Notes under the pieces: generated by a model
Database searches by the model: none
Told to the model about the DNA's origin: nothing
Seen by the model: the letters and a program-made list of their open reading frames with translations, nothing else
Shown here: positions 1 through 14,400 of the stretch, one piece after another
Numbering within the stretch: position 1 is the stretch's first letter
Layout: each line of letters begins with the position of its first letter
Position numbers and translations under genes: made by a program
DNA from: an uncultured archaeon
GTDB taxonomy: Archaea; Altiarchaeota; Altiarchaeia; IMC4; QMZM01
Direction of reading: 5' to 3'
NCBI GenBank assembly: GCA_964549685.1
Contig: CAZJVE010000001.1
Location: 83,806 to 147,805 of the forward strand
DNA length: 64,000 bases

Positions 1-115
1 AGTCTATCCTCAAACTCTTTGGAGATTCCTGACTCCTGGATGGATTTCTCCAGCCCATTTAGTCTATCCTCAAACTCTTTGGAGATTCCTGACTCCTGGA
101 TGGATTTCTCCAGCC
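1..115. repeat. 60-bp period tandem repeat (coding, LEKSIQESGISKEFEDRLNG)
   Basis: Positions 1-55 are identical to 61-115. Confidence 0.95.
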
Positions 116-221
116 TTTCGACAAATTTTGAGGCTACAGCCTCCTGCTTGGCTCTAAGAATTAGATTCATTATCTCGGGGTCATTCATAATCTCCCTTTT
201 TATTATACCTTCAAGCTCCAT
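1..221 (-). CDS. Partial (runs off the window) helical protein with 20-aa tandem repeats; last visible gene of the acidic-paralog operon
   Basis: Not in the ORF track. Manual translation from ATG at 221 (1 nt after the TAG of the upstream gene): MELEGIIKREIMNDPEIMNLILRAKQEAVASKFVERLEKSIQESGISKEFEDRLNGLEKSIQESGISKEFEDR..., open to the window edge. Confidence 0.8.
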   Translation of the reverse strand, partial: MELEGIIKREIMNDPEIMNLILRAKQEAVASKFVERLEKSIQESGISKEFEDRLNGLEKSIQESGISKEFEDR

Positions 222-222
222 T

Positions 223-576
223 CTACGACATGTTATCCAAAACCTTCTCAATAACCCTGCTCCTGAATTCCTGGTCTTTGAGGGCCCGTTTCATCAAGGC
301 CTTCTTTAGCTTGGAATTCGTATCTGTCTTCTTGAGTATGTTCTCTGCAACTTCATGAACAACGGTTTCGTCTTTCTTAAACGTCTCCAAGACATCTTTC
401 GTAATCTTCTTCACCAGGTCTTTGTCGTCCATGAGGCTGCCCTCATCATCCAATTCCTCGATTTCTGTCTCTAAGAAATCCTCCTCTTTCTTTGCTATCG
501 CATCCAGGACGGAGTTCTTAAATTCATCATCCTTTAATAAACCCCGAATATCGTTCCTCGTTATGTCAATACCCAT
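223..576 (-). CDS. Acidic helical repeat protein, unknown family (long variant)
   Basis: MGIDITRNDIRGLLKDDEFKNSVLDAI...DQEFRSRVIEKVLDNMS; AAGGAGG Shine-Dalgarno upstream favours the ATG at 576 over the track start at 585. Confidence 0.85.
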   Translation of the reverse strand: MGIDITRNDIRGLLKDDEFKNSVLDAIAKKEEDFLETEIEELDDEGSLMDDKDLVKKITKDVLETFKKDETVVHEVAENILKKTDTNSKLKKALMKRALKDQEFRSRVIEKVLDNMS

Positions 577-592
577 TTTAAACAACCTCCTT

Positions 593-1024
593 TTATTGAA
601 GTTCTTCTATCAGGCCATCTATTATCCTCTGCCTTTTTTCCGGACTTTTGATGATTATGGCAACCAACTCCTTCCTGAGGCTGGCATCGTCCTCTATGAC
701 CTCTGCCATTTTTCCAGCCACCTCTTCTGCAATGTCGTCCATTTCTTCAGAGGAGATTACTGCTTTGATAACCATCTCCCTGAATTCCCCCTCCATTAGG
801 ATTTTCTCTGCCGAGATTTTCACCTTGGCTTTGATTTCTTCCTCTGACTTGGAGACCTCCCTGGCACTCTTTATTATCTTCTTTGCAACCTTCCTTGGAA
901 TCCCTGCTCTTTTTGAGAATCTTGCAGGGGTTTCCTTTGCTACATCCTCTAGGTCATTATATCCGGCTTCTCTCAGTCTTTTTGCTCTTTCTTCACCAAC
1001 TCCGGCTATTTTTTCCAGATTCAT
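593..1024 (-). CDS. Helix-hairpin-helix domain fused to the acidic helical paralog domain
   Basis: N-terminal LEKIAGVGEERAKRLREAGYNDLEDVA (HhH, RadA N-terminal-like); C-terminal EFREMVIKAV...IEDDASLRKELV...LIEELQ matches the neighbouring paralogs. Confidence 0.85.
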   Translation of the reverse strand: MNLEKIAGVGEERAKRLREAGYNDLEDVAKETPARFSKRAGIPRKVAKKIIKSAREVSKSEEEIKAKVKISAEKILMEGEFREMVIKAVISSEEMDDIAEEVAGKMAEVIEDDASLRKELVAIIIKSPEKRQRIIDGLIEELQ

Positions 1025-1051
1025 TTTTCTACCTCCGATAGCTGAGAGGAA

Positions 1052-1152
1052 TTATTGTAGTTCTTCGACCGGAACATCCAGAGCTTCTTGTACCATAATA
1101 TCCTTAGATTTCTTGCTCTCGCTCCGCTAATTCCAGCTATCCCCACATTCAT
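1052..1152 (-). pseudogene. Internally deleted, frameshifted remnant copy of the HhH-acidic fusion gene
   Basis: SD and start GAGGTAGAAAATG resemble those at 1024; reads MNVGIAGISGARARNLR (cf. MNLEKIAGVGEERAKRLR), then in another frame ...EALDVPVEELQ-stop. Confidence 0.6.
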
Positions 1153-1181
1153 TTTCTACCTCGTCTAGCCAATAAACTGCT

Positions 1182-1607
1182 CTATTGCAGTTCCTCGACC
1201 AGAGTATCCAATATTCTTTGCTTGCTATCCCCATCCATGAGTACTCTGGAAACAAGCTCCCTTCTGAACCCGGGGTCATCTTCCACCGCATCAGAGAGTT
1301 CGTCAACTATATCCTTTACTAGGTCGTCTTCTATTTCCACGGATGAGGTCATTGCATCCAGAACAGAATTCCTGAATTCTGCATCCTGCAGCAATTCCCT
1401 TATATTGGCTTTTGATATATCGGCCATTTTTATCCAGCTTTGTTTATTGTTCCTAAACTCAAAATGGTTCCTCCACCATCCATTTTTCCTATCATCAAGC
1501 TCGTCAACTCTCCAACCAACCCTACAATTGCTACAACGCAATACCTTGTATCCCCCACCAATTGTCCATACAAGCAGGTCAGAGGAACCACAGTTTGGAC
1601 ACTGCAT
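1182..1607 (-). CDS. Zn-ribbon (CPNC...CSNC) in frame with an 81-aa acidic helical paralog (internal ATG at 1427)
   Basis: Two CxxC pairs; MADISKANIRELLQDAEFRNSVLDA...LVEELQ starts at 1427. Confidence 0.8.
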   Translation of the reverse strand: MQCPNCGSSDLLVWTIGGGYKVLRCSNCRVGWRVDELDDRKNGWWRNHFEFRNNKQSWIKMADISKANIRELLQDAEFRNSVLDAMTSSVEIEDDLVKDIVDELSDAVEDDPGFRRELVSRVLMDGDSKQRILDTLVEELQ

Positions 1608-1608
1608 C

Positions 1609-1854
1609 CTATTGAAGCTCTTCTACTAGCTTATCCAAGACACGCTGCTTTGTGCCCTTGTTCCTGAATGCCCTGGCAACCAGCTCTCTCTTGAAGACTG
1701 GATCGTCTTCTATCATGTCAGAGAGCTCATCCACTATGTCGCCTATAAGGTCGCTTTCTATATCCGCAGAGCTAACCATTGCATCCAAGACGGCATTCTT
1801 AAAGGACTCATTCTGCAGCATTGCCTTGATTTCGGCTTTTGGTACATCGGTCAT
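1609..1854 (-). CDS. 81-aa acidic helical paralog, unknown family
   Basis: MTDVPKAEIKAML...IVDELSDMIEDDPVFKRELV...LVEELQ; strong SD AAGGAGGTGA. Confidence 0.9.
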   Translation of the reverse strand: MTDVPKAEIKAMLQNESFKNAVLDAMVSSADIESDLIGDIVDELSDMIEDDPVFKRELVARAFRNKGTKQRVLDKLVEELQ

Positions 1855-1872
1855 TTTTCACCTCCTTATTTT

Positions 1873-1989
1873 TTATTTTTGTTTAATCTCAGAGTGAGAA
1901 AGTCTCTCAATCAAACTCTCCCTGAATTCATCATTTCTCAATAGGTCCCTTATGGATAGAATCCTCACCCTTTTCCCTTCCAGCTTCAT
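1873..1989 (-). CDS. 38-aa micro-paralog carrying one repeat unit
   Basis: Not in the track. MKLEGKRVRILSIRDLLRNDEFRESLIERLSHSEIKQK; ATG 1 nt after the upstream stop; IRDLLRNDEFRESL matches IRGLLKDDEFKNSV. Confidence 0.65.
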   Translation of the reverse strand: MKLEGKRVRILSIRDLLRNDEFRESLIERLSHSEIKQK

Positions 1990-1990
1990 T

Positions 1991-2236
1991 CTATTGAAGC
2001 TCCTCTACCAGGGCATTAAGAACCTTCTCCTTGGCATCTGCGTCCTCAAAGAGCCTGTTTATCAGCTCACTCTTAAAGGTTGGGTCATTCTCTATCATGT
2101 CGGAAAGCTCATCTACAATGTTCCCTATAAGGTCGTCCCCCACGTCAGTAGATGCTGCTACTGCATCCAGCACATCGTTCCTAAATGCCTTCTCATTTAA
2201 CAATTTTCTTATCTCGTCTTTTGATACATCAGTCAT
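1991..2236 (-). CDS. 81-aa acidic helical paralog, unknown family
   Basis: MTDVSKDEIRKLL...IVDELSDMIENDPTFKSELI...LVEELQ; SD GGGAGGT. Confidence 0.9.
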   Translation of the reverse strand: MTDVSKDEIRKLLNEKAFRNDVLDAVAASTDVGDDLIGNIVDELSDMIENDPTFKSELINRLFEDADAKEKVLNALVEELQ

Positions 2237-2254
2237 TTTTATTTACCTCCCATC

Positions 2255-2485
2255 CTATAACATTTCATCCAAAACCTTGGCTTTTAGTTCCTCTCTTATT
2301 TTCGGCTTTTTTAATTCTTTGAAAAAAGAGGGGTTGTCCTCCAAGGCATCGCTTATTACGTCGTCCAGATCTTCATAGAAGTCTGAATCTACACTTTCAC
2401 CTTTCCCCATCCAGAGTTGCTTCATTTCCTCCATTATTTCATCACTAACCTCTGTCACCGTTGTAAATTTTGGCACATCAGTCAT
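2255..2485 (-). CDS. 76-aa divergent acidic helical paralog
   Basis: MTDVPK start shared with 1609..1854; ISDALEDNPSFFKEL motif. Confidence 0.85.
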   Translation of the reverse strand: MTDVPKFTTVTEVSDEIMEEMKQLWMGKGESVDSDFYEDLDDVISDALEDNPSFFKELKKPKIREELKAKVLDEML

Positions 2486-2630
2486 TTTTGTTCACCCCTT
2501 TCTGTAGGTCAACAACATAAAGCTCGCAATCCGAATCTTTGAACTTTTCCTCCAATACCTCATCCAGGATGTGTTCCTCTTTCAGTTCCTCCAGTATCTT
2601 TTTCATGTTGTTGATTCTTAGCGTAAACAT
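2478..2630 (-). CDS. 50-aa acidic small protein
   Basis: Not in the track. MFTLRINNMKKILEELKEEHILDEVLEEKFKDSDCELYVVDLQKGVNKND; fills the operon gap; its stop overlaps the next start (ATGACTGA). Confidence 0.65.
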   Translation of the reverse strand: MFTLRINNMKKILEELKEEHILDEVLEEKFKDSDCELYVVDLQKGVNKND

Positions 2631-2642
2631 TTTATGGGCAAA

Positions 2643-3173
2643 TCAATCATTGAAATTCATAATCACAAGCTTGACTCCCTCTCCACTGCCATTCTCGCTT
2701 TCCACATACTTGAGGACGTCGCCAATGTTGTGATACTTGGGCTTCCTGTACTTCAGGTTTGGGTATATTACCCTGACTCCCTTTTCCTCAAGCTTTTTGA
2801 TTGTTGCAAGGTCTACATCATCCAGATCATCGAGTTCTACATGCTCTATGTCATCATCGGGATTCAGGGTCTTTTCTATTTTCTCTTCAGCCTTGTCCAG
2901 TGCTTCCCTCACCTTCCCGTTATTGCTCTTGATTACTAGGTCATCCATCCCCTTTGCATTATCCTTTACCGACTCGGAGTACTCAATTGCCTCAATCAAC
3001 ATCCTCTTCCTGAATTCCACGTTATCTCTAATCTGTGTTGACAACAGAGTGGCTATCTCTCTTGTCAGAGCATTCATCAGACTTGGGTTTGTTAGAATTC
3101 CGTTCACTATGGAATTCGACAGCTCTCTGTCCCGGATTAGTCCCTCAACGTCGGATTTTTTAATTATCGCCAT
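2643..3173 (-). CDS. Two-domain protein: N-terminal paralog-like helical domain plus acidic alpha/beta C-terminal region
   Basis: IKKSDVEGLIRDRELSNSIVNGI...IRDNVEFRKRML aligns with the paralogs; SD AAGGAGGTGA. Confidence 0.8.
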   Translation of the reverse strand: MAIIKKSDVEGLIRDRELSNSIVNGILTNPSLMNALTREIATLLSTQIRDNVEFRKRMLIEAIEYSESVKDNAKGMDDLVIKSNNGKVREALDKAEEKIEKTLNPDDDIEHVELDDLDDVDLATIKKLEEKGVRVIYPNLKYRKPKYHNIGDVLKYVESENGSGEGVKLVIMNFND

Positions 3174-3855
3174 TTTTTGCTTTTGTCACCTCCTTTATCC
3201 TGTAAAGCGCCTGAAGATACTGATAGAAGCTCCTGGCCCTTTTGGGATTTACCCTCACAGTTCCGTCATCCTTGTAACTGAGAAGGTCAGCTATATCCAA
3301 CTTATCTATTGCCGCGACTCCCTCAATGCTTCTTGGTAGAAATAGGGCCAGTCTGCCTATCTCCAGGGGAGTGTAGGTTATTTCTAAGCTCTCTAAATCT
3401 GGTTCCTTTTTGTTGCCGTAAACCCTCAGGAAAAGCCTTATGGAATTCACACCAAGCAATGTTTTATAGATCTTTTCAGCAGCTTCTTTACTGATTCTGC
3501 TTTCTAATGCCCTGACTTCATTTACCGCCTCCTCGCCGAGCTTGGTTCTTATATATCCTCCATCGGTTTTTTCTATCAGCTTGAATCCCAGCAACTTATT
3601 GATGTGTCTATCGATATCTAGGATATTTACTTCATTGCAAATCCTTGTTAGCTCTTCCTGATCAAGTTCGTTTCCGGCTTTCTGGAGCAGCTGCATTCTA
3701 AAACACTCCCCTCTTGGAGATGTTAATACAGCATGCAGTTTTGCTATCTCCTCTGCATCCCCGAATATTTTCTTGATGAGAGCACCATCGAGGTCTTTTG
3801 CTGTTTCCATAATCTTCCCGGCTATGGTCCTTGCAATGTTTCTTTCCTCATCCAT
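3160..3855 (-). CDS. Hypothetical protein with probable tandem winged-helix domains
   Basis: DRHINKLLGFKLIEKTDGGYIRTKLGEEAV is a wHTH helix-wing pattern; second IDKLDIADLLSYKDDGTVRVNP. Start at 3855 preferred (ATGGATGA overlap); the track starts at 3894. Confidence 0.7.
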   Translation of the reverse strand: MDEERNIARTIAGKIMETAKDLDGALIKKIFGDAEEIAKLHAVLTSPRGECFRMQLLQKAGNELDQEELTRICNEVNILDIDRHINKLLGFKLIEKTDGGYIRTKLGEEAVNEVRALESRISKEAAEKIYKTLLGVNSIRLFLRVYGNKKEPDLESLEITYTPLEIGRLALFLPRSIEGVAAIDKLDIADLLSYKDDGTVRVNPKRARSFYQYLQALYRIKEVTKAKNGDN

Positions 3856-3949
3856 TTTCTTTTTGGTCTTTGCTCTTCTCACAATAAATCTCATTTACGA
3901 TTGTTTCTATAATCTTCCCCATCCCTGAATCCTTTCTTTTTTCATCCAT
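3848..3949 (-). CDS. 33-aa micro-ORF resembling the N-terminus of 5294..5515
   Basis: Not in the track. MDEKRKDSGMGKIIETIVNEIYCEKSKDQKENG; coupled at both ends by ATGGATGA start/stop overlaps. Confidence 0.55.
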   Translation of the reverse strand: MDEKRKDSGMGKIIETIVNEIYCEKSKDQKENG

Positions 3950-5291
3950 CTTCTTCCTCTTCCTCATTGCCGGCATAATTCTTTTCATAAACCGAATTCA
4001 GCACAATGGCGGAAACGCAGTCGTCTGTTGAATTATTCCCTGTTCTGAATGAATCTGGAAGTCCTACCTGAAGCCCTATGTATAACGCCAAGAAGGCAGA
4101 TAATACCGGCTCCTGAAGATTGAACATTGTAGCTAATGGCCCTGCGAATAGCACAAGTTCTCCCGGTATGCCCGGGACCCCATAGCTCAGTATAAAGATT
4201 AAAGGAACGCTAAGGAGCCACTCTACCAGGGATATTTCAATCCCCAGAGCACTGGCAACCAAGCCTCCCAAGACAAAGATACATATTACGGTCCCGTTTA
4301 TGTTTAGATAGGAGCCCATTCCAACCACGAATCTTCTCACTACTTTGCTTATCCTTGGAAAGTGTTTCTTGGTGAGATAGAGGTTTAGAGGTGTAGCAAG
4401 AGCCTCTGAACTGGTAGCCCAGAGTAAGGGATAGACTCTAATCCAGTAATCCTTAAAGTAAGAGTTGACAGAGAACCAGTCCGTTTTGTATTTAGCCCAG
4501 AATACTATTACAAGATGCCAGATAATGCAAGCAACCCCAACCAGAAAAGAACCTAAGAGATAGAGTCCGACCATCCCCAAGGGGTTGTTAGGGTCTATTG
4601 GAAAACCAAAGAAATCCACATTATGGAAGGTAAAGCCGCCAGAAATCTCTGAGTTTATATTACCATTCACAGAATTAGGCAATGCATAGACATAGCCACC
4701 AATAGCAAACATGAAGAAAGGAATTATAGGAACGAATAACTGACCAAAGCTCTCTAATCCTACCGAAGCCCTATCTAAAATCCTGTTGAGCCATGATAAT
4801 TGGGGAACCTTAACCGAGAGGAAAGCGGTTATGATTCCAACCCAGATTGCAAGCAGGAAGGGACTGCTGTAGGACATTCTGAACAAAGTTGAGAGAGACT
4901 CCATTACAGCCTCCTCTATGGATAAGCTCCTGCTCGGCATAATCGGAAAACCGAAGATTACTACCGTAAAGAATACCGCAAACAGAGAAGCCATGAGTCT
5001 TCTCATGCCCAGCCACAAGACAGCATATCTTCCAAATTTCCCGGCCTTGGAATTAAGTAGTTTGGCCAAGGCAGGGGTAAGTATGATGAAGATAGCTATG
5101 GGGGCAATATATCCATACAGATCAATAAAGGTTTCCATACCCTCAGTCACGAGGTTAACGAAACCCTCCGAGATACTTGCAATGAGAATTCCTGCAACAA
5201 AAGAACCTACGGTAAGGAATACTATGTACTTCTCCAGAGCACCCATGATGCTCCCATATGATTTATCAAAATTCATCGTTTTATGACTCAA
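3942..5291 (-). CDS. Dicarboxylate/amino acid:cation symporter (DAACS/SDF, GltPh fold), divergent
   Basis: Multiple TM segments; HP1-like WATSSEALATP, TM7 NINGT (canonical NMDGT), HP2 GVPGIPG, TM8 DSFRTGNNSTDD (canonical DMGRTMVNVTGD); ATG at 5276 is an alternative start. Confidence 0.85.
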   Translation of the reverse strand: MSHKTMNFDKSYGSIMGALEKYIVFLTVGSFVAGILIASISEGFVNLVTEGMETFIDLYGYIAPIAIFIILTPALAKLLNSKAGKFGRYAVLWLGMRRLMASLFAVFFTVVIFGFPIMPSRSLSIEEAVMESLSTLFRMSYSSPFLLAIWVGIITAFLSVKVPQLSWLNRILDRASVGLESFGQLFVPIIPFFMFAIGGYVYALPNSVNGNINSEISGGFTFHNVDFFGFPIDPNNPLGMVGLYLLGSFLVGVACIIWHLVIVFWAKYKTDWFSVNSYFKDYWIRVYPLLWATSSEALATPLNLYLTKKHFPRISKVVRRFVVGMGSYLNINGTVICIFVLGGLVASALGIEISLVEWLLSVPLIFILSYGVPGIPGELVLFAGPLATMFNLQEPVLSAFLALYIGLQVGLPDSFRTGNNSTDDCVSAIVLNSVYEKNYAGNEEEEEDG

Positions 5292-5293
5292 TT

Positions 5294-5515
5294 CTAACCA
5301 AGGAGCTCATCCGTTACATCCTTCATGACGTTTTTCTTAATCTCTGGTTCTGAAAACGCTTTGTCCAGAAGCCTTGATTGGAATTCTGGGGAACCCTCCA
5401 CATAGTCAGCTATCGTTTCAGAAATGTCCTCTATGCCATCATCGCTTTCCTTTGCCTTTGCTATCACTACATCCACGATGCTATCCAATACGTCCTTTTT
5501 TGTTTTTTTATCCAT
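5294..5515 (-). CDS. 73-aa acidic helical paralog; first gene of the operon
   Basis: IADYVEGSPEFQSRLLDKAFSEPEIKKNVMKDVTDELL aligns with the C-terminal half of the paralogs. Confidence 0.85.
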   Translation of the reverse strand: MDKKTKKDVLDSIVDVVIAKAKESDDGIEDISETIADYVEGSPEFQSRLLDKAFSEPEIKKNVMKDVTDELLG

Positions 5516-5585
5516 TTTTATACTTGTTTTACCTAATTAGAGTATTATACAGCCTTATTTAAATAATTTGTGCTGTATCTGGTCA

Positions 5586-5690
5586 GTTACAACAGATTAA
5601 AAGTCAGATATGACTCTATTTGTTGTAACAAGGAAGAAACAACCTTTTTTGGTTTGTAATGAAGAGGTACAAAAAGGTAGACGTTGTAAC
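5586..5690. promoter_or_regulatory. Inverted/direct repeat operator candidate in the divergent promoter of the operon
   Basis: GTTACAACA (5586) / TGTTGTAAC (5621) inverted pair around AGTCA-GATA-TGACT; third GTTGTAAC at 5683; AT-rich TATA-like box near 5556-5565. Confidence 0.5.
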
Positions 5691-5709
5691 AGGATGGTGA
5701 CAAATCAGG

Positions 5710-5970
5710 ATGAAATGGGATAATGCTTTTTGGGTGTGGCTGATGGTAGTGGTTCTGCTCTCACTTTTCGTATTCTTTACCAGGATAAACCCTGAGCTAA
5801 TATTCTTCCTGCAGATGTTGATAATTCTTGGCCTGGTCATAGAGAGAATGGCCAGAATCTCAGCTGAAAGGGAAATGTGGAAAATACAGAAAAATATCTA
5901 TGAGTTCTGGCTGAAAACAAGCAAGATGGAGCCAAAGGTAAAAAGGGAGCTGCTAGAGAAATTCAAATGA
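5710..5970 (+). CDS. Small membrane protein (2 TM) of unknown function
   Basis: Two hydrophobic stretches then a charged helix; divergent from the operon. Confidence 0.7.
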   Translation: MKWDNAFWVWLMVVVLLSLFVFFTRINPELIFFLQMLIILGLVIERMARISAEREMWKIQKNIYEFWLKTSKMEPKVKRELLEKFK

Positions 5971-5974
5971 GGCA

Positions 5975-6187
5975 CTATACGGATTCCAGTTCCTTTACGA
6001 CCATATCCAATAAAATTTTGTCTTCGGTAATTTTTTTCAGAATTCGTTCTCTCAGTCGGGGGTCCTCCATAATGGCATCCGCTATCTCCTTTGCCAGGGC
6101 GTCTCGATTATTTGGTTCAAAATCGCCTTTCAACCCGTTCAAGATATTGCTTACTATTTCTTTATCAGTGAACTTTCCATTTACCAT
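5975..6187 (-). CDS. 70-aa helical paralog (separately transcribed)
   Basis: LAKEIADAIMEDPRLRERILKKI...VVKELESV matches the paralog motif. Confidence 0.75.
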   Translation of the reverse strand: MVNGKFTDKEIVSNILNGLKGDFEPNNRDALAKEIADAIMEDPRLRERILKKITEDKILLDMVVKELESV

Positions 6188-6449
6188 TCTGGATTACGTA
6201 TATAGTTTACATTTGACTACATAAATATAAAATCTGCAGGGGAATTTAGTCCGTTTATAATACTTTGTCATGTTAAGATAGTCTTTTGACTATATGATTA
6301 GAAATTATGGCTTTTATGGTCGAAAGATTAAAATTATTTAGCTAAATTTAATTTTGGATGGATATTCGAACTCTGGTTTGATAACTTAAATAAGGTGTAA
6401 TTGGCAAAATTACAGATAAAATGGGCACTCTATATGACTGAGACACACA

Positions 6450-9400
6450 ATGGAAGACAAAGATAAAATAGAAGAGAAAGAAGCAGCGATAATTGATATA
6501 GTATCTGATGGGGTTTACTTCCTCGATTTAGAAGGTAGAATAACCAGGGTTAACAAGTCTGTGGGGAGATTTGGATATAAAAAAGAAGACCTAATCGGAA
6601 AACCATGCACTGATTTTATTGCTGAGAAAGATATAGAGAAGGCCTTGAGATTAATAAAAACCTGCATTGAAAAGGGCAACATTTCGAATCATGAGTTCAA
6701 CCTGAAGGCCAAGGATGGGAAAGAGAATCCTGCCTTGGTTAGTGCCACACTTACGAGAGGTGTGGGAGGTAAGCCTGCTGGGATTGTCGTTATAGCCAAG
6801 GACATCACTAATCTCAAGAAAGCAGAGGAGATTTTAAAGGAATCCGAAGAGAAATACAAAACTTTGGTAGAAAACATGGCTGATTCTGTTTGCATTGTTG
6901 ATTTAAAGGGGAGAGCTTTGTTTGCCAATAAAGCCGCTGAAGAATTAACTGGCTACCGCCTTGGGGAGGAAAGAGGGCAGAGTATCAGAAAACTCTTTCC
7001 GAAAAAATACTGGCCTCTTTGCCTTAAAAAAATAAGCCAATCAACATTAGGCAAGCCGGTTCCATATTTTGAGATTGAGATAATAGATAGAAGTGGCAAA
7101 AGAATTCCTGTTGAAACGGGAGGTCAGTTGATTGAATTCAAGGGGAAAAAGGCCATACAGATTGTTACAAGAGATATCAGCGAGCGGAAGAATGTAGCGG
7201 GAGCACTACAACAACAGGCGAAAGATCTAAATCTGATGAATGAGATGGTGATTGAGCTGGCAGATGCGTCCTCCGTGGATGATATTCACAAGCTTGTCTG
7301 CGAGGGGCTGAAAAGCATCACGGGTGCCTTGATAACTACCATTAGTATTTACAATCCACGGAAGCAAGAACTCAGGATAGAGCATATTAGCGCTGAGAGT
7401 AAACTAATCGATAAAGCAGGGAGGATACTAGGTAAAAGAGTGAAGGACTTGCGAACACCTCTTGAGCCTGATATCCCTGAGATGATGCTATCGAAGAGGG
7501 TAGAGAAGTTGGAGGGGTTACATGAGCTTACATTCGGTGCCATTCCAAAACCTGTTGCCAGTGTACTTGAAAAGAGTCTAGGGATTGGCGATGTCTATGC
7601 CTTGGCTTTACACCATAAAGGGGAACTTATAGGCACTATGCCGATTATAATGCCCAAACACTCGCCTCCGCTCTCGCTTGAGATGCTTGAGGCCTTCTCT
7701 AATCTGGCCTCTACTTCAATACAGCGCAGGAAGGCGGAGGAGGAGCTGAATAGAGCATACGACGATTTGGAGGTAAAAGTTCAGGAACGGACTGTAGAGT
7801 TAACAAAATCTACTGAGAAATTACATGCTGAGATTGCCGAGCGCAAGGATACCGAGGAGGCGTTGCGAGAATCAGAAGGAAAGTATAGAAACATTGTTGA
7901 ACTGGCACCTGAGAGCATTATGACCTTAGATATAAAGGGTGTGGTTACATCATGCAACCCTGCATTTCTTAAAACAACGGGGTTTTCTAAAGATGAGATA
8001 ATTGGAAAACATTTTTCAAAGCTCCCAACCCTTCGTGCTAGAGACATTCCAGAATATGCAAAGGTATTAAGCTCTATTCTTAGTGGAAACATTCCTAAAC
8101 CTTTTGAGTTTATATGGACCCATAAAGATGGGACTAGCCGTTTTGGCGAGGCTTATTTTGGTCTACAGAAAAGGGGACAGAGAATAACGGGCATACAGAT
8201 TATTCTAATTGACATCACCGAGCGGAAGGGGGCGGACGAGGCGTTGCGCGAGAGCGAGGAGAAGTACAGGAGGATGTTTGAGCTCTCTCCCGAGGGCATC
8301 GTTCTCTTAGATGGAAAAGGGATGTTGTTGGATGCGAATGAAAAAGCATACGACTTTACCGGATACGGTCCGGAGTATATCATTGGAAAGAACGTGTTCG
8401 AGTTACCGTTTTTTACCGATGAAACCAAGGCCAAAATCAGGGAGAACTTCGCTCAGAGGATGGCCGGCAAGGAAATCCCACCCTATGAAGTCGAGTTCAT
8501 CAACAAGAGGGGAGAAAAACGTGTTGTAACGATATTCGCTACCACGATAAAGGATGAAGAGGAAAAGATAATCGGTGAACTTGTAATCATATCTGATATC
8601 ACCGAGCGGAAGCGTGCGGAGGAGGAGCTCAAGATTAAGAATATGGCTGTGGAGTCTTCAATTAGCGGCATAGGGATAACAGACCTTGAAGGGAAACTCA
8701 CTTACGTGAATGACTCCATTTTAAAGATGTGGGGCTATAAAGACAAGAGTGAGATACTAGGGAAACCTCTACCGGAATTCTGGGAAGGGGATAGGGTATT
8801 TCAGACAATTAAAAACCTTCAAGAAAAGGGCTTTGATAGTGGTGAGGACATAGGAAAAAGAAAAGACGGGTCACTATTCAATTTACTATTCACCGCAAAC
8901 GTGATTAAAGACGAGAAAGGCGAGCCAACTGCAATGCTTGGGTCATTTATGGACATCACCGAGCGGAAGGGGGTGGAGGAGGCGCTGCAGGAGAGCGAGG
9001 AAAGATTAGTTAGCTTTATGGAATCATCGCCAGATGCCTTTGGTCTCTTAGACTCAGACTTGAACTACGTTGAAGTTAACAGGAAGGGATTGGGGATGTT
9101 AGGTCTGACTGAAGAGGAGATAATAGGTAAGAATATCTTAGAGATTGCGCCGGGTCTTGAAGAAACAGGTAGATATGATAAATTTTTAGAAGTTATAAAA
9201 ACAGGCAAACCCTTCTTTGTAGATGATATTGTCCCTGTCAGAAAATCAGGAGATATTCATGTGGCTTTGAGGGCCTTTAAAGTAGGTGATGGTCTTGGGA
9301 TTATTACCTCAGACATCACCGAGCGCAAGCGAGCTGAAGCGGCAATCCAAGAGTCAGAAGACAAGTTCAAGAAATTATTTGAATTCGCACCAGATGGCTA

Positions 9401-11168
9401 TTATTTGAACGACTTAAAAGGTAACTTCGTAGACGGCAATAAAGCTGGAGAGGAGTTGGTCGGTTATAAGAAAGAGGAATTAATCGGGAAGAGTTTCTTG
9501 AAGCTGAAGCTACTGCTTCCGGAACAGATTCCAAAAGCAGCCAAGCTTCTTGCCAAAAATGCTTTAGGGAAACCTACAGGACCAGATGAGTTCACTTTAA
9601 ACCGGAAGGATGGTACTCAGGTCCCAGTGGAAATAAGAACGTTTCCGGTAGAGATTAAAGGTCATAAGTTGGTACTGGGCACTGCACGGGATGTCACAGA
9701 ACGAAAGCAAAGGGAAGGGGAAATCCTGAAACTGAAGGAATTCAGCGAGAATATCGTAGAAAACATTCCATCGCCACTTGCGGTATTTGATAAAGACCTG
9801 AGGATAGTCTCCATGAATAAGAGATTCTGTGAACTCCATGGAAAAAAGAAGGGGGAGTTAGAAGGAAGGTCTCTCTATGAACTACACCCCGAGGAAGAGA
9901 TAAAGAGGAATAAAATTGATGAGAAATTAAGGCATGTGTTGGAAACAGGAGAGCTGATGGAGAGTAGAGGAGTAACTCGTGAATCGCCAAAGGGTGAGAG
10001 AATACTGGATATAGAATTCATTCCGGTCAAAAAAGCAGAAGAAGACATGCAGGTGATGGTGATAGCCAATGACATTACCGATAGAATCAGAAAAACGGAG
10101 CTTCAGGAAAAGCTGGACCTGCTCACCAAGAAAAAACTGAAGATAAGCGAGAATGACAAACTGATACTTTACAGCCTGACAGAGAATCCACTGGCTACGG
10201 ACGATGAGCTCTCTTCCAAGCTGAACCTGCCAAGAACGACAATAACCGGTATAAAGAACAGATTGAGGGATAAGGAGTTCTATTCAACGATTGCGGTTCC
10301 GAATTTCAATGCGCTTGGCTGTGAGCTTCTCACCATAGCCTATGGGAAATTTAGCCCCTCAGCGGATGAAAAGGAAAGGGAGAAGTTCATAAAAGAGAAG
10401 ATTCCGGAGATAGTTTATTCATTAGCCACAAATTCGGAATTCGTCTTCGTTTCCATGGCCAGGAATCTGACGGATTTCGAGAGGTATGTCGGCTCTATGC
10501 TGGAGTTGTATCAGCAGAAGAATCTTATCGGAGATATGGGCGTAATTCATATTCCTTTTGGGCTCAGCAAGAGAACATACCTCAATTTCGCACCGGTTCT
10601 GGGCAACCTTTTGGACCTGGATTTTGCAACGGAACACGGAGAATTTATATGGTCCAAGGAAGCGAAAAGGGAACTCGGTCAGAACGAAAAGATGGTTCTT
10701 TACGAATTTACAAAAAGCCCGGATTCAAGCAGTAAAGACGTAGCAGAGATAACGGGGCTAAGCAGGGTTACAGTTAACCAGATAAAGAAGAAACTAATGG
10801 ACGAGAATCTGCTCAGGTTTGTCAGGATTCCGAATCTGGAGAAGATTGGCTGTGAGATTCTTGCAGCGTGCAGTGAAAATTTCAGGCCGGAGTTCTCCTT
10901 TGATGTGAGATCCAAGAGTATGCTGTCAATGAACAAGAACGGCCACTTGTTTTTGGGTGGTGAAACAGACCTGCAGTCAACGCATCTCTGCGTTTTCAGA
11001 AATTTTACGGAGTATAAGGATATGTATGAAAAGTATGTAACTGAAATGAAGAGAAAGAATTTTTATGCAAGAGACCCCAGAATCTTTATAATGCCAATTC
11101 AGGAGGTTAAGTATGAGATGATATCATTTGCTCCTTTGGCAGAGAGGATTCTTGGATTAGAGGATTAG
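6450..11168 (+). CDS. Giant one-component sensor: PAS-PAS-GAF-6xPAS fused to tandem Lrp/AsnC-like HTH modules
   Basis: Eight PAS/PAC units ending DIT/DIS/DVT-E(R/N)K, a GAF-like segment at about aa 255-430, C-terminal ENDKLILYSL...LNLPRTTITGIKNRL and NEKMVLYEF...TGLSRVTVNQIKKKL; no His-kinase H-box or HATPase seen. Confidence 0.85.
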   Translation: MEDKDKIEEKEAAIIDIVSDGVYFLDLEGRITRVNKSVGRFGYKKEDLIGKPCTDFIAEKDIEKALRLIKTCIEKGNISNHEFNLKAKDGKENPALVSATLTRGVGGKPAGIVVIAKDITNLKKAEEILKESEEKYKTLVENMADSVCIVDLKGRALFANKAAEELTGYRLGEERGQSIRKLFPKKYWPLCLKKISQSTLGKPVPYFEIEIIDRSGKRIPVETGGQLIEFKGKKAIQIVTRDISERKNVAGALQQQAKDLNLMNEMVIELADASSVDDIHKLVCEGLKSITGALITTISIYNPRKQELRIEHISAESKLIDKAGRILGKRVKDLRTPLEPDIPEMMLSKRVEKLEGLHELTFGAIPKPVASVLEKSLGIGDVYALALHHKGELIGTMPIIMPKHSPPLSLEMLEAFSNLASTSIQRRKAEEELNRAYDDLEVKVQERTVELTKSTEKLHAEIAERKDTEEALRESEGKYRNIVELAPESIMTLDIKGVVTSCNPAFLKTTGFSKDEIIGKHFSKLPTLRARDIPEYAKVLSSILSGNIPKPFEFIWTHKDGTSRFGEAYFGLQKRGQRITGIQIILIDITERKGADEALRESEEKYRRMFELSPEGIVLLDGKGMLLDANEKAYDFTGYGPEYIIGKNVFELPFFTDETKAKIRENFAQRMAGKEIPPYEVEFINKRGEKRVVTIFATTIKDEEEKIIGELVIISDITERKRAEEELKIKNMAVESSISGIGITDLEGKLTYVNDSILKMWGYKDKSEILGKPLPEFWEGDRVFQTIKNLQEKGFDSGEDIGKRKDGSLFNLLFTANVIKDEKGEPTAMLGSFMDITERKGVEEALQESEERLVSFMESSPDAFGLLDSDLNYVEVNRKGLGMLGLTEEEIIGKNILEIAPGLEETGRYDKFLEVIKTGKPFFVDDIVPVRKSGDIHVALRAFKVGDGLGIITSDITERKRAEAAIQESEDKFKKLFEFAPDGYYLNDLKGNFVDGNKAGEELVGYKKEELIGKSFLKLKLLLPEQIPKAAKLLAKNALGKPTGPDEFTLNRKDGTQVPVEIRTFPVEIKGHKLVLGTARDVTERKQREGEILKLKEFSENIVENIPSPLAVFDKDLRIVSMNKRFCELHGKKKGELEGRSLYELHPEEEIKRNKIDEKLRHVLETGELMESRGVTRESPKGERILDIEFIPVKKAEEDMQVMVIANDITDRIRKTELQEKLDLLTKKKLKISENDKLILYSLTENPLATDDELSSKLNLPRTTITGIKNRLRDKEFYSTIAVPNFNALGCELLTIAYGKFSPSADEKEREKFIKEKIPEIVYSLATNSEFVFVSMARNLTDFERYVGSMLELYQQKNLIGDMGVIHIPFGLSKRTYLNFAPVLGNLLDLDFATEHGEFIWSKEAKRELGQNEKMVLYEFTKSPDSSSKDVAEITGLSRVTVNQIKKKLMDENLLRFVRIPNLEKIGCEILAACSENFRPEFSFDVRSKSMLSMNKNGHLFLGGETDLQSTHLCVFRNFTEYKDMYEKYVTEMKRKNFYARDPRIFIMPIQEVKYEMISFAPLAERILGLED

Positions 11169-11455
11169 CCCTTCAATGCTGCCAGCATCTCCCTGTTGAC
11201 CTTTTTGGATTCCTTGAATTCCTTACAAAGCTCAGCCAACTTCTTTTTAAGATTGCTCACTTCCCTTGCTTGTTTTTCCATGCCGGATGTCTTTTCCTTT
11301 AGAGCCTTAATCTCATTCTTCTGCTCATTAAATCTTCTGTTTATAAGGGATACCATCTCTCCAAGGAACATATTCAATTCAAGGTCCGATTCCTCTGCCT
11401 CTTTGGTTTTCTTAGTTTCCACCATTTTTTTACTTAATGTTTTTGATTCTATCAT
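11165..11455 (-). CDS. Coiled-coil hypothetical protein
   Basis: Heptad K/E-rich sequence; overlaps the end of the TrmB-family gene. Confidence 0.65.
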   Translation of the reverse strand: MIESKTLSKKMVETKKTKEAEESDLELNMFLGEMVSLINRRFNEQKNEIKALKEKTSGMEKQAREVSNLKKKLAELCKEFKESKKVNREMLAALKG

Positions 11456-12242
11456 TTAAATCTTCCATTACCTCCCATCTTGACTCAAATAGGTTGTTGA
11501 GCATTGAAACCATCTCCGGGTTGTCTACAATAAGGCCTGCATCGTATTCCGCTTGCTTTGGGTCTGTTCTTGTGATTAAAAGAGCCTTCTGACCATCGAA
11601 TGTAAAAAAACCTGTATGCGGCTCTGAGGTATATCTGATGTTGACATGCTTTGATATGTCCTTTACCAGAGGTAGATTCTTTTTATCAACAGGTGTTGCG
11701 AGTCTTATGTCGACTCCATTGGCTTTGATCTTCTTGAAGAAAACATCATCTACTGTTTCGGAAAGAAGAGCATACCTGCGATAAGATGCCATTATATACA
11801 CGTGGTTCAGAGACTCCATCAGGAAGTCCGTAAGATATTTTGCTATATTGGACCTGCCCCTAATTACTGAAGCGACATTCATCGAATTTGAAAAGAATGG
11901 TGACTCGGTAATTGCTGATTCAAGCTCCGGGAGAATTTCATCCCTCGCCTCTTTAATCGCCTGGATTCTCTTTTCATGCTTTTTGATGGATTCCTCCTCA
12001 AAAATCTTGAAAATATTCTTTGGGTGCACGACCTTGTATTTTACCGGCTTTGTGGGGTAAAGAACAAGAAAGCCCTTCTTTTCCAGAGAAGATACTATCT
12101 CATAGGCCTTGGTTCTGGGAATCCCAGAGATTTGGGATATATCAGAAACAGTTAGGGATTCTTGCCTGAGTAGAGAGACATATACCTTTGCCTCGTATTG
12201 AGACATTCCCAGGGAGGTGAGCCTCTCAAGCAGAGGGCTCAT
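11430..12242 (-). CDS. TrmB-family transcriptional regulator
   Basis: LGMSQYEAKVYVSLL...SGIPRTKAYEIVSSLEKKG HTH plus PLD-like effector domain. Confidence 0.92.
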   Translation of the reverse strand: MSPLLERLTSLGMSQYEAKVYVSLLRQESLTVSDISQISGIPRTKAYEIVSSLEKKGFLVLYPTKPVKYKVVHPKNIFKIFEEESIKKHEKRIQAIKEARDEILPELESAITESPFFSNSMNVASVIRGRSNIAKYLTDFLMESLNHVYIMASYRRYALLSETVDDVFFKKIKANGVDIRLATPVDKKNLPLVKDISKHVNIRYTSEPHTGFFTFDGQKALLITRTDPKQAEYDAGLIVDNPEMVSMLNNLFESRWEVMEDLNDRIKNIK

Positions 12243-12326
12243 CTACCTCCACCTCCGATTATTTAGCATTCTTCAACCAATAACCTAGCAACCGTATATA
12301 TTAGCGATTACCTATATATATCTGAT

Positions 12327-12359
12327 TTAGTGTTACACTAACGCTAATGACAGTCATTA
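12327..12359. promoter_or_regulatory. Two adjacent perfect 15-bp palindromes in the trmB/lrp divergent promoter
   Basis: TTAGTGT-T-ACACTAA (12327-12341) and TAATGAC-A-GTCATTA (12345-12359). Confidence 0.6.
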
Positions 12360-12425
12360 CATTATGTCTGAATTTTGTACCAAAACTCGACATAAATTAT
12401 TACAATATAGGATATAAAAGACAAA

Positions 12426-12881
12426 ATGACTACCGAAATTGATGAGACTGACAAGAAGATACTTATGATGCTTCAGCAGGATGGGAGGCTCGCCTATAAC
12501 GACATAGCCAAATCCCTCGGAATGTCGCAGTCAACTGTGTATGATAGAGTAAGGAGGATGGAGGAGGACGGAATCATAGAGAGATTCACCATAATCCTGA
12601 ATCCAAGAAAGGTTGGTAAAAGTGTAATTGCATTTATAGGGCTGGATACATATCCCAAGGAGATAGAGAGGATTGCAGAGGCCGTAGCAAAATTCGACGA
12701 GGTTTCAGGGGTTTATCTGACAACGGGGGATTATGACATAACGATAAAGGTTATAGTAGATAGCATGAATGTGTTAAATGATTTCGTAATCAAAAAGCTT
12801 TCAACGATAGATGGTCTGAGGAATATCTCCACGCAGCTGGTTCTCGGCACTTATAAATCGACGCCTGTAATTTCTCTTTAG
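12426..12881 (+). CDS. Lrp/AsnC family transcriptional regulator
   Basis: IDETDKKILMMLQQDGR...VYLTTGDYD. Confidence 0.95.
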   Translation: MTTEIDETDKKILMMLQQDGRLAYNDIAKSLGMSQSTVYDRVRRMEEDGIIERFTIILNPRKVGKSVIAFIGLDTYPKEIERIAEAVAKFDEVSGVYLTTGDYDITIKVIVDSMNVLNDFVIKKLSTIDGLRNISTQLVLGTYKSTPVISL

Positions 12882-12882
12882 A

Positions 12883-13815
12883 ATGGCCTTAGAACTCTGG
12901 TTAGGAATAATGGCAGCAAGCTTACTGCTGCTTGTGAAATCAGCAGATTACCTGACGGACTCTGCTGAGAAAATTGGGCTCTTCCTGGGGGCTCCCCAAT
13001 TCATTGTAGGCATAACCATTGTAGCTATAGGCACCTCAGTCCCAGAGTTGGTGACTTCTCTTTTCTCAGTCTTCCGAGATTCTTCTGAGTTTGTAATGGG
13101 TATTGTAGTGGGGTCTAATATTGCCAATGTACTACTGATCCTGGGAGTAATCTCGATTATAAAGGGGAGATCCATTCGAATCAAAAGGGACATTAAGAAA
13201 GTAGATTACACATTTTTCTTGTCTTCTGCTCTCCTCCTGACCTTCACCGCCTATGACGGAACGTTAGATATTATTGACGGTCTCCTGTTGATAGCCGGCT
13301 ACCTTATCTACACCAAATACTTTATCGATAGCCATGAGAATGATAAAGAGAAAACAGAGGTAGAATTCTCATGGAAACCCATAATAATATTCTTGCTCAG
13401 CGTGGGGGGAGTATATCTGGGTGGAAAATACACCATAGATTCTGTTGTGCAGCTCACCCAGATATGGGGGGTTCCAGATACATCTATAATTGCCATGAGT
13501 GTGGTAGCTATTGGTACCAGCTTACCTGAGCTTTCAGTAGCGATTGTAGCAGTTAAGAAGAGACAGAATGAGTTGCTGATAGGGAATATCCTGGGGTCAA
13601 ATATATTTAATTCTTTTCTCGTTATAGGGATTCCCACTCTTATTTCTCCCCTTAAGGTCTCTTCCAGTCTATTGAATATGGGAATACCCTTCATGCTGGG
13701 TGCCTCTCTGTTGTTCATAATCCTTACTCTGGATAACAAGATAACAATACATGAGGCCCTATTCCTACTACTCTTCTATACCCTTTATTTATTAAAGCTT
13801 TCTGGAGTTGCATGA
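12883..13815 (+). CDS. Ca2+/cation antiporter (CaCA family, YrbG/NCX_Mj-like)
   Basis: Two alpha-repeats GTSVPE...GSNIAN and GTSLPE...GSNIFN. Confidence 0.93.
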   Translation: MALELWLGIMAASLLLLVKSADYLTDSAEKIGLFLGAPQFIVGITIVAIGTSVPELVTSLFSVFRDSSEFVMGIVVGSNIANVLLILGVISIIKGRSIRIKRDIKKVDYTFFLSSALLLTFTAYDGTLDIIDGLLLIAGYLIYTKYFIDSHENDKEKTEVEFSWKPIIIFLLSVGGVYLGGKYTIDSVVQLTQIWGVPDTSIIAMSVVAIGTSLPELSVAIVAVKKRQNELLIGNILGSNIFNSFLVIGIPTLISPLKVSSSLLNMGIPFMLGASLLFIILTLDNKITIHEALFLLLFYTLYLLKLSGVA

Positions 13816-13865
13816 GAGTTAGGCACTACAGACTCTATTTTTCTGTCTAAATCAATAGAATAACT

Positions 13866-14075
13866 ATGTCAGATCTGCCAACAGCCCCGATTGAACGGAT
13901 TATACGTAAGGCAGGTGCTTCAAGGGTTAGTCCAGATGGTGCGGAAGCTCTGAGGGATGTCTTGGAAGAGATGAGTATAGACATTGCTGCCAAGGCAGTT
14001 AAACTGGCCGAACACGCTGGCAGAAAAACAGTGAAGGCAAAGGATATCAAATTAGCTGTTTCTCAGGAGGTATGA
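13866..14075 (+). CDS. Archaeal histone (HMf-like)
   Basis: [19 protein letters not shown]...[14 protein letters not shown]. Confidence 0.95.
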
Positions 14076-14151
14076 GTGCTTGCTTGAAGATGCAGGACAT
14101 GACAGCAAGGATTCCCTTTTTTCATCTCTTAGTTCGTATTCCTGTTGGGAT

Positions 14152-14400
14152 TCAAGCACTTTCTATCTCGATAGAATAATCCTGAATCACTGGGTTGGCA
14201 AGAAGCCTCTTGCACATCTCCTCGGCCTTTTTTCTGGCTTCGTCCTCGGATTTGGCATCTATTTCAATCGCATATGCTTTGACAGAATCCACGCCCTTGA
14301 CAGGAAAGCCCAAGAGCTGGAGGGACTTCTGGACCGTCTCTCCTTCAGCGTCCATCACTCCAGGCTTCAGTTGAATCCGAACCTCTGCTTTATAGGTCAT
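14152..14400 (-). CDS. purS: Phosphoribosylformylglycinamidine synthase subunit PurS
   Basis: LKPGVMDAEG...MCKRLLANPVIQDY. Confidence 0.95.
   Translation of the reverse strand: MTYKAEVRIQLKPGVMDAEGETVQKSLQLLGFPVKGVDSVKAYAIEIDAKSEDEARKKAEEMCKRLLANPVIQDYSIEIESA

Follow-up and report, generated by a model that had tools for sequence, protein, structure and literature searches.

Small acidic helical proteins as a multi-copy component of an apparently mobile and stress-regulated transporter island in an uncultured archaeon

A stretch of 64,000 nucleotides from an uncultured archaeon of the Altiarchaeota (contig CAZJVE010000001.1 of assembly GCA_964549685.1, positions 83,806 to 147,805; the window, in what follows) carries close to its beginning three small genes with reading frames of 81 codons each. 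These genes, and the protein family that they represent, are the focus of this report. FAM is used here as a working name for the family. FAM is a multi-copy component of a conserved, mobile and apparently stress-regulated transporter island, in which it is accompanied by two further unannotated families, P230 and P135. In the following sections we describe the locus, the anatomy of the family and its neighborhood in other genomes, and we weigh what these small proteins may do.

The gene cluster at the locus

A profile built from the paralogs has 11 matches in this genome, and all of them fall inside 7.4 kb (C1:82627-89989). The features of the cluster that lie in the window are given below, starting with the three paralogs.

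1182..1427, minus strand: family paralog A in its 81-residue reading (MADISK...LVEELQ); profile E 2.3e-35
1609..1854, minus strand: family paralog B, 81 residues; profile E 2.5e-36; five-helix AlphaFold2 model
1991..2236, minus strand: family paralog C, 81 residues; profile E 2.8e-34
1428..1607, minus strand: upstream in-frame extension of paralog A with a CxxC...CxxC zinc ribbon; zinc-ribbon Pfam matches are sub-threshold
2255..2485, minus strand: divergent family member, 76 residues; E 1.2e-25 with the paralog profile and 1.8e-5 with a broad profile
593..1024, minus strand: HhH_5 domain followed by a C-terminal family domain ending IEELQ, 143 residues; HHH_5 48.1 bits versus a cut-off of 27; family E 2.3e-24
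223..585, minus strand: divergent member of 120 residues that contains an acidic insertion and gives two weak matches to the family, which overlap; E 2e-16
2643..3173, minus strand: protein of 176 residues with an N-terminal family domain and a C-terminal P135 domain ending GVKLVIMNFND; E 3.3e-14
3160..3894, minus strand: P230, a conserved protein of 244 residues with weak winged-helix leads, used as cluster marker; 100 homologues at 43-66% identity
3942..5291, minus strand: SDF/Glt-type membrane protein, 449 residues; PF00375 82 bits versus a cut-off of 27.9; aligned to GltPh chains
5294..5515, minus strand: FAM member of a short subfamily, 73 residues, with its stop 2 nt ahead of the SDF-type start codon; E 6e-24
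5975..6187, minus strand: distant family member, 70 residues; E 1.9e-19 and E 4.4e-7
1021..1152, minus strand: open reading frame (ORF) of 43 codons beginning MNVGIAGISGARARNLR, like the HhH start MNLEKIAGVGEERAKRLR of the next gene (compared by eye, unscored)

The first-pass annotation of this DNA had described three 81-residue paralogs with a common core, and this description is borne out: the three ORFs align without gaps, and the motifs F(R/K)NxVLDA and DL(I/V)xxIVDELSDxxExDPxF(K/R)xEL as well as the terminal LVEELQ are found in every one of them. Pairwise protein identities are 60%, 58% and 53%. At the DNA level, identity is 0.61-0.67, the nonsynonymous divergence (dN) is 0.28-0.34 and the synonymous divergence (dS) ranges from 1.7 to saturated, so that the three genes are old duplicates under purifying selection. 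They form one clade in a tree of 117 family sequences (support 0.92), and thus represent a lineage-specific triplication. Shine-Dalgarno-like sites (GGAGG/GGGAGG) are present 5' of the second and third paralog genes. The proteins start with MADISK or MTDV(P/S)K, possess neither a Cys nor a hydrophobic N-terminus, and are all acidic, with isoelectric points (pI) of 4.1-4.5.

Paralog A has two possible products. Its frame is open up to an ATG at 1607, a single nucleotide past the stop of the 1609-1854 gene, and the ORF so defined has 141 residues; the 141-residue form (recorded as P0251) and the 81-residue form both exist as database records, and either may be the one that is made. A word-index homologue search with the 81-residue protein returned only the protein itself, and with the 141-residue query it returned only the two forms of its own gene. 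The sole match of the 81-residue protein in the ESM Atlas was an unnamed cluster of 82 residues at 0.87, which is below the useful level.

Some of the remaining genes of the cluster join FAM domains to other elements. The HhH_5 domain (PF14520) at the N-terminus of the 593-1024 protein scores well above the family cut-off, and the adjoining 43-codon ORF is probably a decayed duplicate, a remnant of the start of this HhH gene. The C-terminal domain of the 2643-3173 protein is common to proteins of ~135-182 residues in bacterial clusters. Just upstream of the window (locus L012), the archaeal contig encodes a further FAM copy of 74 residues (L012 16619-16843). A DASS permease and a tandem Usp protein are found there as well, as are three membrane proteins of small size and a protein with a coiled coil, the matches of which in PHROGs and PADLOC are coiled-coil noise only. 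Directly downstream of the 74-residue FAM member lie two paralogous small membrane proteins of 82 and 108 residues (L012 15879-16127 and 16262-16588), followed by a membrane protein of 153 residues; none of these three has a Pfam match.

Anatomy of the family

A full HMMER scan with the paralog profile across 1.84 billion representative proteins recovered 179 FAM representatives at E<=1e-3, including 55 at E<=1e-10. Length is strongly constrained, with 77 of the 150 matches listed measuring 81-84 residues. No Pfam or NCBIfam model recognizes the small FAM proteins, and literature searches on GerD-like proteins, GerD homologs, PF17898 and the motif VIMNFND returned nothing relevant; it is on these two grounds only that we call the family undescribed. 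PHROGs and PADLOC likewise gave no meaningful matches for FAM, P230 or P135.

The consensus of a 92-member alignment reads MGxxxxxDVxxLLxDxxx...DPxxxxxLAxDxADxLxDxLEDDPxFxxKxxxxAxxxxxFKxxVxxxLxxELxx. The C-terminal end of the protein falls 1-3 residues past the last conserved hydrophobic column in 89 of the 92 members, 51 of which start with MG and only 7 of which contain any Cys; their median pI is 4.46. An internal repeat had been proposed in the first-pass annotation, and profile-profile comparison confirms the repeat units but not the period of about 14 residues, because successive units start 16-17 residues apart. Among the units at positions 14-30, 48-64 and 63-81, hhalign scores are 17.7-22.1, and the maximum reached in 60 column shuffles per pair is 11.1.

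With the 92-member alignment as input, AlphaFold2 models paralog B as five helices at a predicted local distance difference test score (pLDDT) of 87.9, up from 79.1 in an earlier model built from an alignment of nine paralogs. The predicted template modeling score (pTM) is only 0.54. Confidently predicted helices combined with a weakly defined global fold are as expected of a subunit that is not globular. Taken as a family, the FAM proteins are acidic, cytoplasmic and all-helical, and consist of helix units of 16-17 residues of the (D)-P-x-F-K-x-x-h-h type with a fixed C-terminus.

Likeness to GerD and to other helical proteins

GerD is the scaffold of the germinosome in Bacillus spores. PMC11841064 portrays it as a trimer of helical build that gathers the germinant receptors of the membrane into clusters, and as a lipoprotein with a signal sequence, located at the outer side of the inner membrane of the spore. 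The units of the three paralogs had at first been compared with GerD and with STI1/DP repeats. The likeness to GerD is weak but recurs at the level of the family, without any match that reaches the Pfam cut-off and with a fold comparison at the level of noise. PF17898 (GerD) is matched by 17 of the 92 FAM members at E<=0.01, while no other Pfam family is matched by more than three members, and these matches are colinear, with protein residues 10-75 opposite profile positions 11-78. The best of the 92 members attains 27.8 bits against a cut-off of 29.5. Within this genome the best match reaches 9.6 bits (E 0.835), and the three window paralogs have no GerD match at E<=0.1. When the FAM profile is compared with the PDB, the GerD chain 4o8w_A is found at E 0.023 over profile positions 10-81; in the VIA fold search the same chain has a Z of 3.6 and a root-mean-square deviation of 4.3 over 49 residues, at rank 13 and tied with many unrelated helical chains.

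FAM and GerD are both all-helical and built of short helix units of the (K/D)DPxF...h type, and each is associated with transporter-like membrane proteins, be it by gene location or by action on them. They differ in that FAM has ~81 residues as opposed to the 114-position core profile of GerD, and in that FAM is acidic, cytoplasmic and arranged in multi-copy arrays. The three paralogs lack the signal peptide and the lipobox Cys of the lipoprotein. Whereas GerD belongs to spore-forming Bacillus and its germinant receptors, FAM is carried by an archaeon and on contigs titled Omnitrophota, Pirellulales, Dehalococcoidia, Chloroflexi or Bacteroidetes, and no germinant-receptor genes were identified among the FAM neighbors scanned. 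By the tests applied here, FAM is not a member of the GerD family. The likeness itself may go back to a distant common ancestry, or it may have arisen by convergence on one kind of helix-capping repeat.

The comparison with STI1/DP repeats found no support: the 92 members match 26 families at E<=0.01, the 25 shown do not include STI1, and no STI1/HOP chain occurs in the rows listed by the Foldseek and VIA fold searches. One FAM member matches the ubiquilin-like PF23195 at E 0.0066. A true relationship to GerD or STI1, in which FAM would form the major subunits of a metal-dependent superhelical rope or filament, was considered as well. GerD is the commonest Pfam lead of the family, its matches are colinear, a repeat of DPxF-type helix units is verified, and GerD offers the precedent of a helical assembly. 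Nevertheless, given the matches below cut-off, a fold score shared with unrelated chains, the missing lipoprotein features and receptor genes, and a resemblance that may stem from a common helix-capping motif through convergence or composition, we consider such a relationship quite unlikely.

A second comparison concerns ribosomal peptide precursors. Leader peptides of the NHLP/Nif11 type derive from the N-terminal helical region of the nitrile hydratase alpha chain, and their precursors consist of a helical leader, a Gly-Gly site and a variable core rich in Cys, Ser and Thr, with maturation genes nearby. The FAM profile does match the N-terminal region of the nitrile hydratase alpha chain 4ob1_A (E 0.0034) by way of a DPEFKKRLL-type motif, and one of the 92 members matches Nif11 (E 0.0085). 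Both groups share the helix motif DP(E/x)FKK(R/K)LL and small genes in tandem copies, so that FAM genes could in principle encode precursors with such a leader, exported by the adjoining membrane protein, beside which multiple small genes indeed stand in tandem. The FAM proteins nonetheless do not fit the description of NHLP/Nif11-type precursors. Their C-terminus is the conserved part and not a variable core, Cys is rare, no Gly-Gly site was seen, and neither a maturase nor a peptidase-ABC exporter nor a cyclodehydratase was seen in the loci. The window proteins have no NCBIfam NHLP match, and the membrane protein is a carrier of the SDF/Glt type. A precursor role is accordingly very improbable.

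The transporter and the unannotated proteins P230 and P135

The 3942-5291 protein belongs to the SDF/Glt family (PF00375), with its match spanning profile positions 208-385, and 18 chains of the GltPh type match it at E<=0.001. In the alignment with GltPh, DSFRTGNNSTDD stands opposite DMGRTMVNVTGD, and NINGT stands opposite NMDGT. We take the aligned GltPh motifs to be residues of the substrate and Na+ sites; if this is right, the archaeal protein probably functions in the Na+-coupled transport of acidic amino acids or dicarboxylates.

P230, which is encoded next to the carrier, has no assigned function: 99 of its 100 homologues have no Pfam domain on record, and the few that are named are called hypothetical. 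Its winged-helix leads are all below significance (HTH_45 at E 0.029, Sso10a at E 0.054), and the ESM Atlas returned winged-helix leads only (HTH_45/PadR/HxlR clusters at 0.86-0.89). In locus L030, a 535-residue SDF-type protein (5037-6644) carries in its first 37 residues a match to the N-terminal motif of P230 (IKEIF..A.EIA.LH...TS), a fusion that, by the Rosetta-stone argument, hints at docking of P230 to the carrier. One P230 homologue, on a contig titled Candidatus Omnitrophota (G061:C11:12382-13044), has a single in-frame TAA inside the match, which may be due to a pseudogene, a sequencing error or recoding.

Small cytoplasmic partners or regulators of oligomeric carriers are familiar from other systems, among them GlnK with AmtB and DcuS with the SDF-family protein DctA. 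A functional analogy to these pairs is suggested by the 73-residue FAM gene, which ends 2 nt ahead of the SDF-type gene, and by the P230 motif fused to the SDF-type protein of L030. FAM differs from PII proteins and DcuS in having no relation to them in sequence or fold.

P135 is the third unannotated family of the island. It has no Pfam match and is recognized by its near-invariant tail, YPNLKY(R/A)KPKYxN(I/V)...LKYVE...G(V/I)(K/R)(L/I)VIMNFND, the last 11 residues of which show little or no variation between the archaeon and the bacterial loci. Its carriers are the window protein 2643-3173 (in the C-terminal 40 residues), L037 3913-4461, L014 5011-5559, L023 6540-6947, L027 69-470, L026 4187-4612 and L015 73-480. 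Between two family genes of the window, a putative ORF of 50 codons (2478-2630, minus strand) overlaps the next start by 8 nt, and its end, ...VVDLQKGVNKND, bears a faint likeness to the P135 tail.

A conserved neighborhood in other genomes

The association of these genes recurs well beyond the archaeon. Eight loci were found in species genomes, on contigs titled Omnitrophota, Pirellulales, Dehalococcoidia, Chloroflexi and Bacteroidetes together with two weak loci; one of the two near-identical Chloroflexi loci bears only the title 'uncultured bacterium'. As in the window, these loci encode an SDF/Glt-type protein of ~450-480 residues followed directly by P230 (~230 residues). They also encode an HhH_5 protein. 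A DASS (Na_sulph_symp) permease and, with it, a tandem Usp protein are frequent companions, and in bacteria genes for an RsbW-like kinase, a STAS protein and a sigma-70 factor often occur as well. Further Pfam domains in the loci are those of MgtC/DUF4010, a K channel, a Na/Ca exchanger and a Na/Pi cotransporter with PhoU, and there are also a TOBE-type ABC importer, an RsbU_N-GAF-Trans_reg_C protein and PAS proteins. Five bacterial carrier genomes have 6, 7, 2, 2 and 2 FAM matches, which are mostly clustered.

As an independent probe of metagenome contigs, P230 retrieved 26 loci. FAM lies upstream of P230 on the same strand in all seven of the loci that extend for >=2.5 kb upstream, and an SDF-type gene lies directly upstream in 13 of the 14 with >=1.5 kb; in the fourteenth, the called ORFs of the SDF-type protein and P230 overlap by 74 nt, which is beyond the limit set. 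When the ORFs of the loci were clustered all against all, the number of loci was 30 for P230, 25 for the SDF-type protein and 19 for FAM, the last with 61 ORFs. The core order of the island is FAM copies, then the Glt/SDF-type membrane protein, then P230.

Distribution and origin of the island

The island differs in base composition from its surroundings. The guanine plus cytosine (GC) content of C1:78,000-98,000 is 40-44%, and that of an 11-kb core is 42.1% versus 49.2% for the genome; only 0.7% of the 11-kb windows of the genome are as low. Its distribution is patchy. Neither FAM nor P230 was found in any of 60 relatives from within the genus, family, order and class of the archaeon (genomes 57-97% complete). 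For the bacterial carrier G061, the contig of which is titled Candidatus Omnitrophota, 200 other genomes of its phylum were searched for P230, and none gave a match. This patchy distribution across domains is best explained by horizontal transfer, and the island is a rare accessory module. Viral contigs yielded no relatives of FAM or P230, which leaves a phage origin without support, and no tRNA was found at the island borders.

The low-GC stretch measures ~20 kb, namely the window from ~1 to 14200 together with G000:C1:78000-83800. Besides the FAM cluster it holds a multi-PAS protein of 1572 residues (6450-11168), TrmB (11430-12242), Lrp/AsnC (12426-12881) and a Na/Ca exchanger (12883-13815), and the acquired island may thus be larger than the FAM cluster. 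At its upstream edge, two adjacent plus-strand ORFs (L012 12241-12705 and 12653-12949) have the same first ~70 residues (MQMIKIKLGVKNYDPKLKELVDEKVYRKYKLYGELSE...) and represent a local duplication; the first of them has no Pfam match. A scaffold gap of 100 N lies immediately before the window (G000:C1:83706-83805), beside a perfect 60-bp tandem repeat (1.9 copies), so that it is scaffolding that connects the two halves of the island. At window positions 1-115 this repeat encodes 20-residue repeats (LEKSIQESGISKEFEDRLNG) on the minus strand and runs into the gap, so that the gene is incomplete.

The sequencing runs listed with this DNA are labeled as marine or seawater metagenomes. This habitat, the acidic composition and multi-copy arrays of FAM, and the presence nearby of Usp, a sigma-B-type partner switch, a K channel, a Na/Ca exchanger, MgtC and Na-coupled anion carriers would all suit abundant acidic proteins without a specific partner, which cells under osmotic or ionic stress would use to buffer cations or to shield macromolecules. 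General protectants of this kind would, however, hardly be expected to have a fixed length, a C-terminal end fixed in nearly all members, conserved hydrophobic positions and helices that AlphaFold2 predicts with confidence, and the fusions to specific domains described in the next section point to a defined structure and to defined partners. We therefore regard a purely protective or buffering function as unlikely.

Fusions of FAM units and a candidate docking function

FAM units are not confined to the small free-standing proteins. An N-terminal HhH_5 domain is joined to FAM in the window protein 593-1024, in P0019 and in L030 1186-1707, and in L025 172-723 the HhH is inserted between FAM units 4 and 5. 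Proteins with Lys/Arg-rich tails and an acidic linker retain only the last FAM unit or units (L021 436-726, L023 7574-7885, L027 482-862). A zinc ribbon is fused to FAM in the extended form of paralog A (window 1428-1607), and a membrane-anchored bPH_2 protein that is encoded right after P230 (L026 10697-11593) ends in two C-terminal FAM units. The C-terminal domain of P135 is fused to FAM in window 2643-3173. In some loci there is also a 52-residue FAM copy that ends at the EDxP turn.

Such promiscuity, with one or two units attached mostly at the C-terminus, would be expected of a docking or oligomerization element. Mainly because of these fusions, we tentatively favor the view that FAM acts as a docking or oligomerization/scaffold module, which may assemble the proteins of the cluster around the Glt-type carrier and its regulator; this role is plausible, if still somewhat short of probable. 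Free FAM copies would bundle with the FAM units on 'head' proteins of the same cluster, where the heads would be the HhH domain, the Lys/Arg-rich tail, the zinc ribbon, the membrane-anchored bPH protein and the P135 domain. Such bundles would build a scaffold of the GerD kind, centered on the stress-regulated transporter with its regulator. The first-pass annotation had suggested a hetero-oligomer or filament, and the attachment of FAM units to five different other domains within the same clusters makes this more plausible.

Several points weigh against the docking view. The weaker of the fusion matches (E 1e-4 to 1e-5 across 1285 ORFs) comprise one or two repeat units of biased composition. 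Foldseek against the PDB found nothing at E<=0.001 with the first model and had zero matches with the second, and the VIA fold search with the two models gave best Z values of 4.8 and 5.2 with helical-repeat or long-helix chains only, so that no solved fold is matched with confidence. While the family, its repeat, the synteny, the fusions, the patchy distribution and the low GC content are observations, binding of FAM to itself or to other proteins, the assembly with its partners and any effect on transport or regulation are predictions, and the evidence that neighborhood and fusions provide for docking is indirect. No RNA data set is among the sequencing runs listed with this DNA. A three-copy complex prediction for paralog B with the 92-row alignment scored 0.26 and 0.02, against a mark of 0.42, and speaks neither for nor against binding. 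Finally, several domains of DNA-binding type occur in the cluster, and these fit a regulatory role equally well.

Such a regulatory role would have FAM serve as an acidic adaptor that binds or titrates P230, HhH proteins and proteins with basic tails, as an anti-regulator or DNA mimic, such that expression of the island depends on the level of FAM or on the state of the transporter. Regulators held at transporters have precedents in Mlc-PtsG and DctA-DcuS, which the P230 N-terminal motif on an SDF-type protein recalls. The low pI of the paralogs and of the family, the winged-helix leads of P230, the fusions of FAM to HhH_5, basic tails and the zinc ribbon, and a DndB-like neighbor in L015 are all in line with this explanation. 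On the other hand, three to seven near-full-length copies per locus would be unusual for a stoichiometric anti-regulator, and DNA binding by P230 is itself putative, with every winged-helix lead falling below significance. We thus view regulatory adaptors as a doubtful alternative, albeit one to be kept in mind.

To return to FAM as a docking module, the idea can be extended further. FAM units could be the universal 'plug' of a mobile, stress-switched module, in which free copies and tagged heads would form a hetero-oligomeric rope on the trimeric Glt-type carrier and couple the carrier, P230 and the nucleoid; it would then be a cytoplasmic counterpart of the GerD scaffold that archaea have shared by exchange with five or more lineages of bacteria. 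In this full form the proposal is speculative and has only a small chance of being correct.

Meaning for the family and its carriers

FAM, P230 and P135 are well-defined conserved families for which there is no Pfam or NCBIfam model, and they can be curated as such even without a function. If FAM does act in docking, it would constitute a new family of small scaffold proteins, and the locus would represent a new, self-contained accessory island that comprises a Glt-type carrier, a DASS carrier, Usp, regulators of its own, FAM, P230 and P135. This island would move between archaea and bacteria of marine and subsurface habitats. The principle known from GerD, in which a helical rope organizes transporter-like membrane proteins, would thereby apply outside spores too, and on the cytoplasmic side of the membrane.

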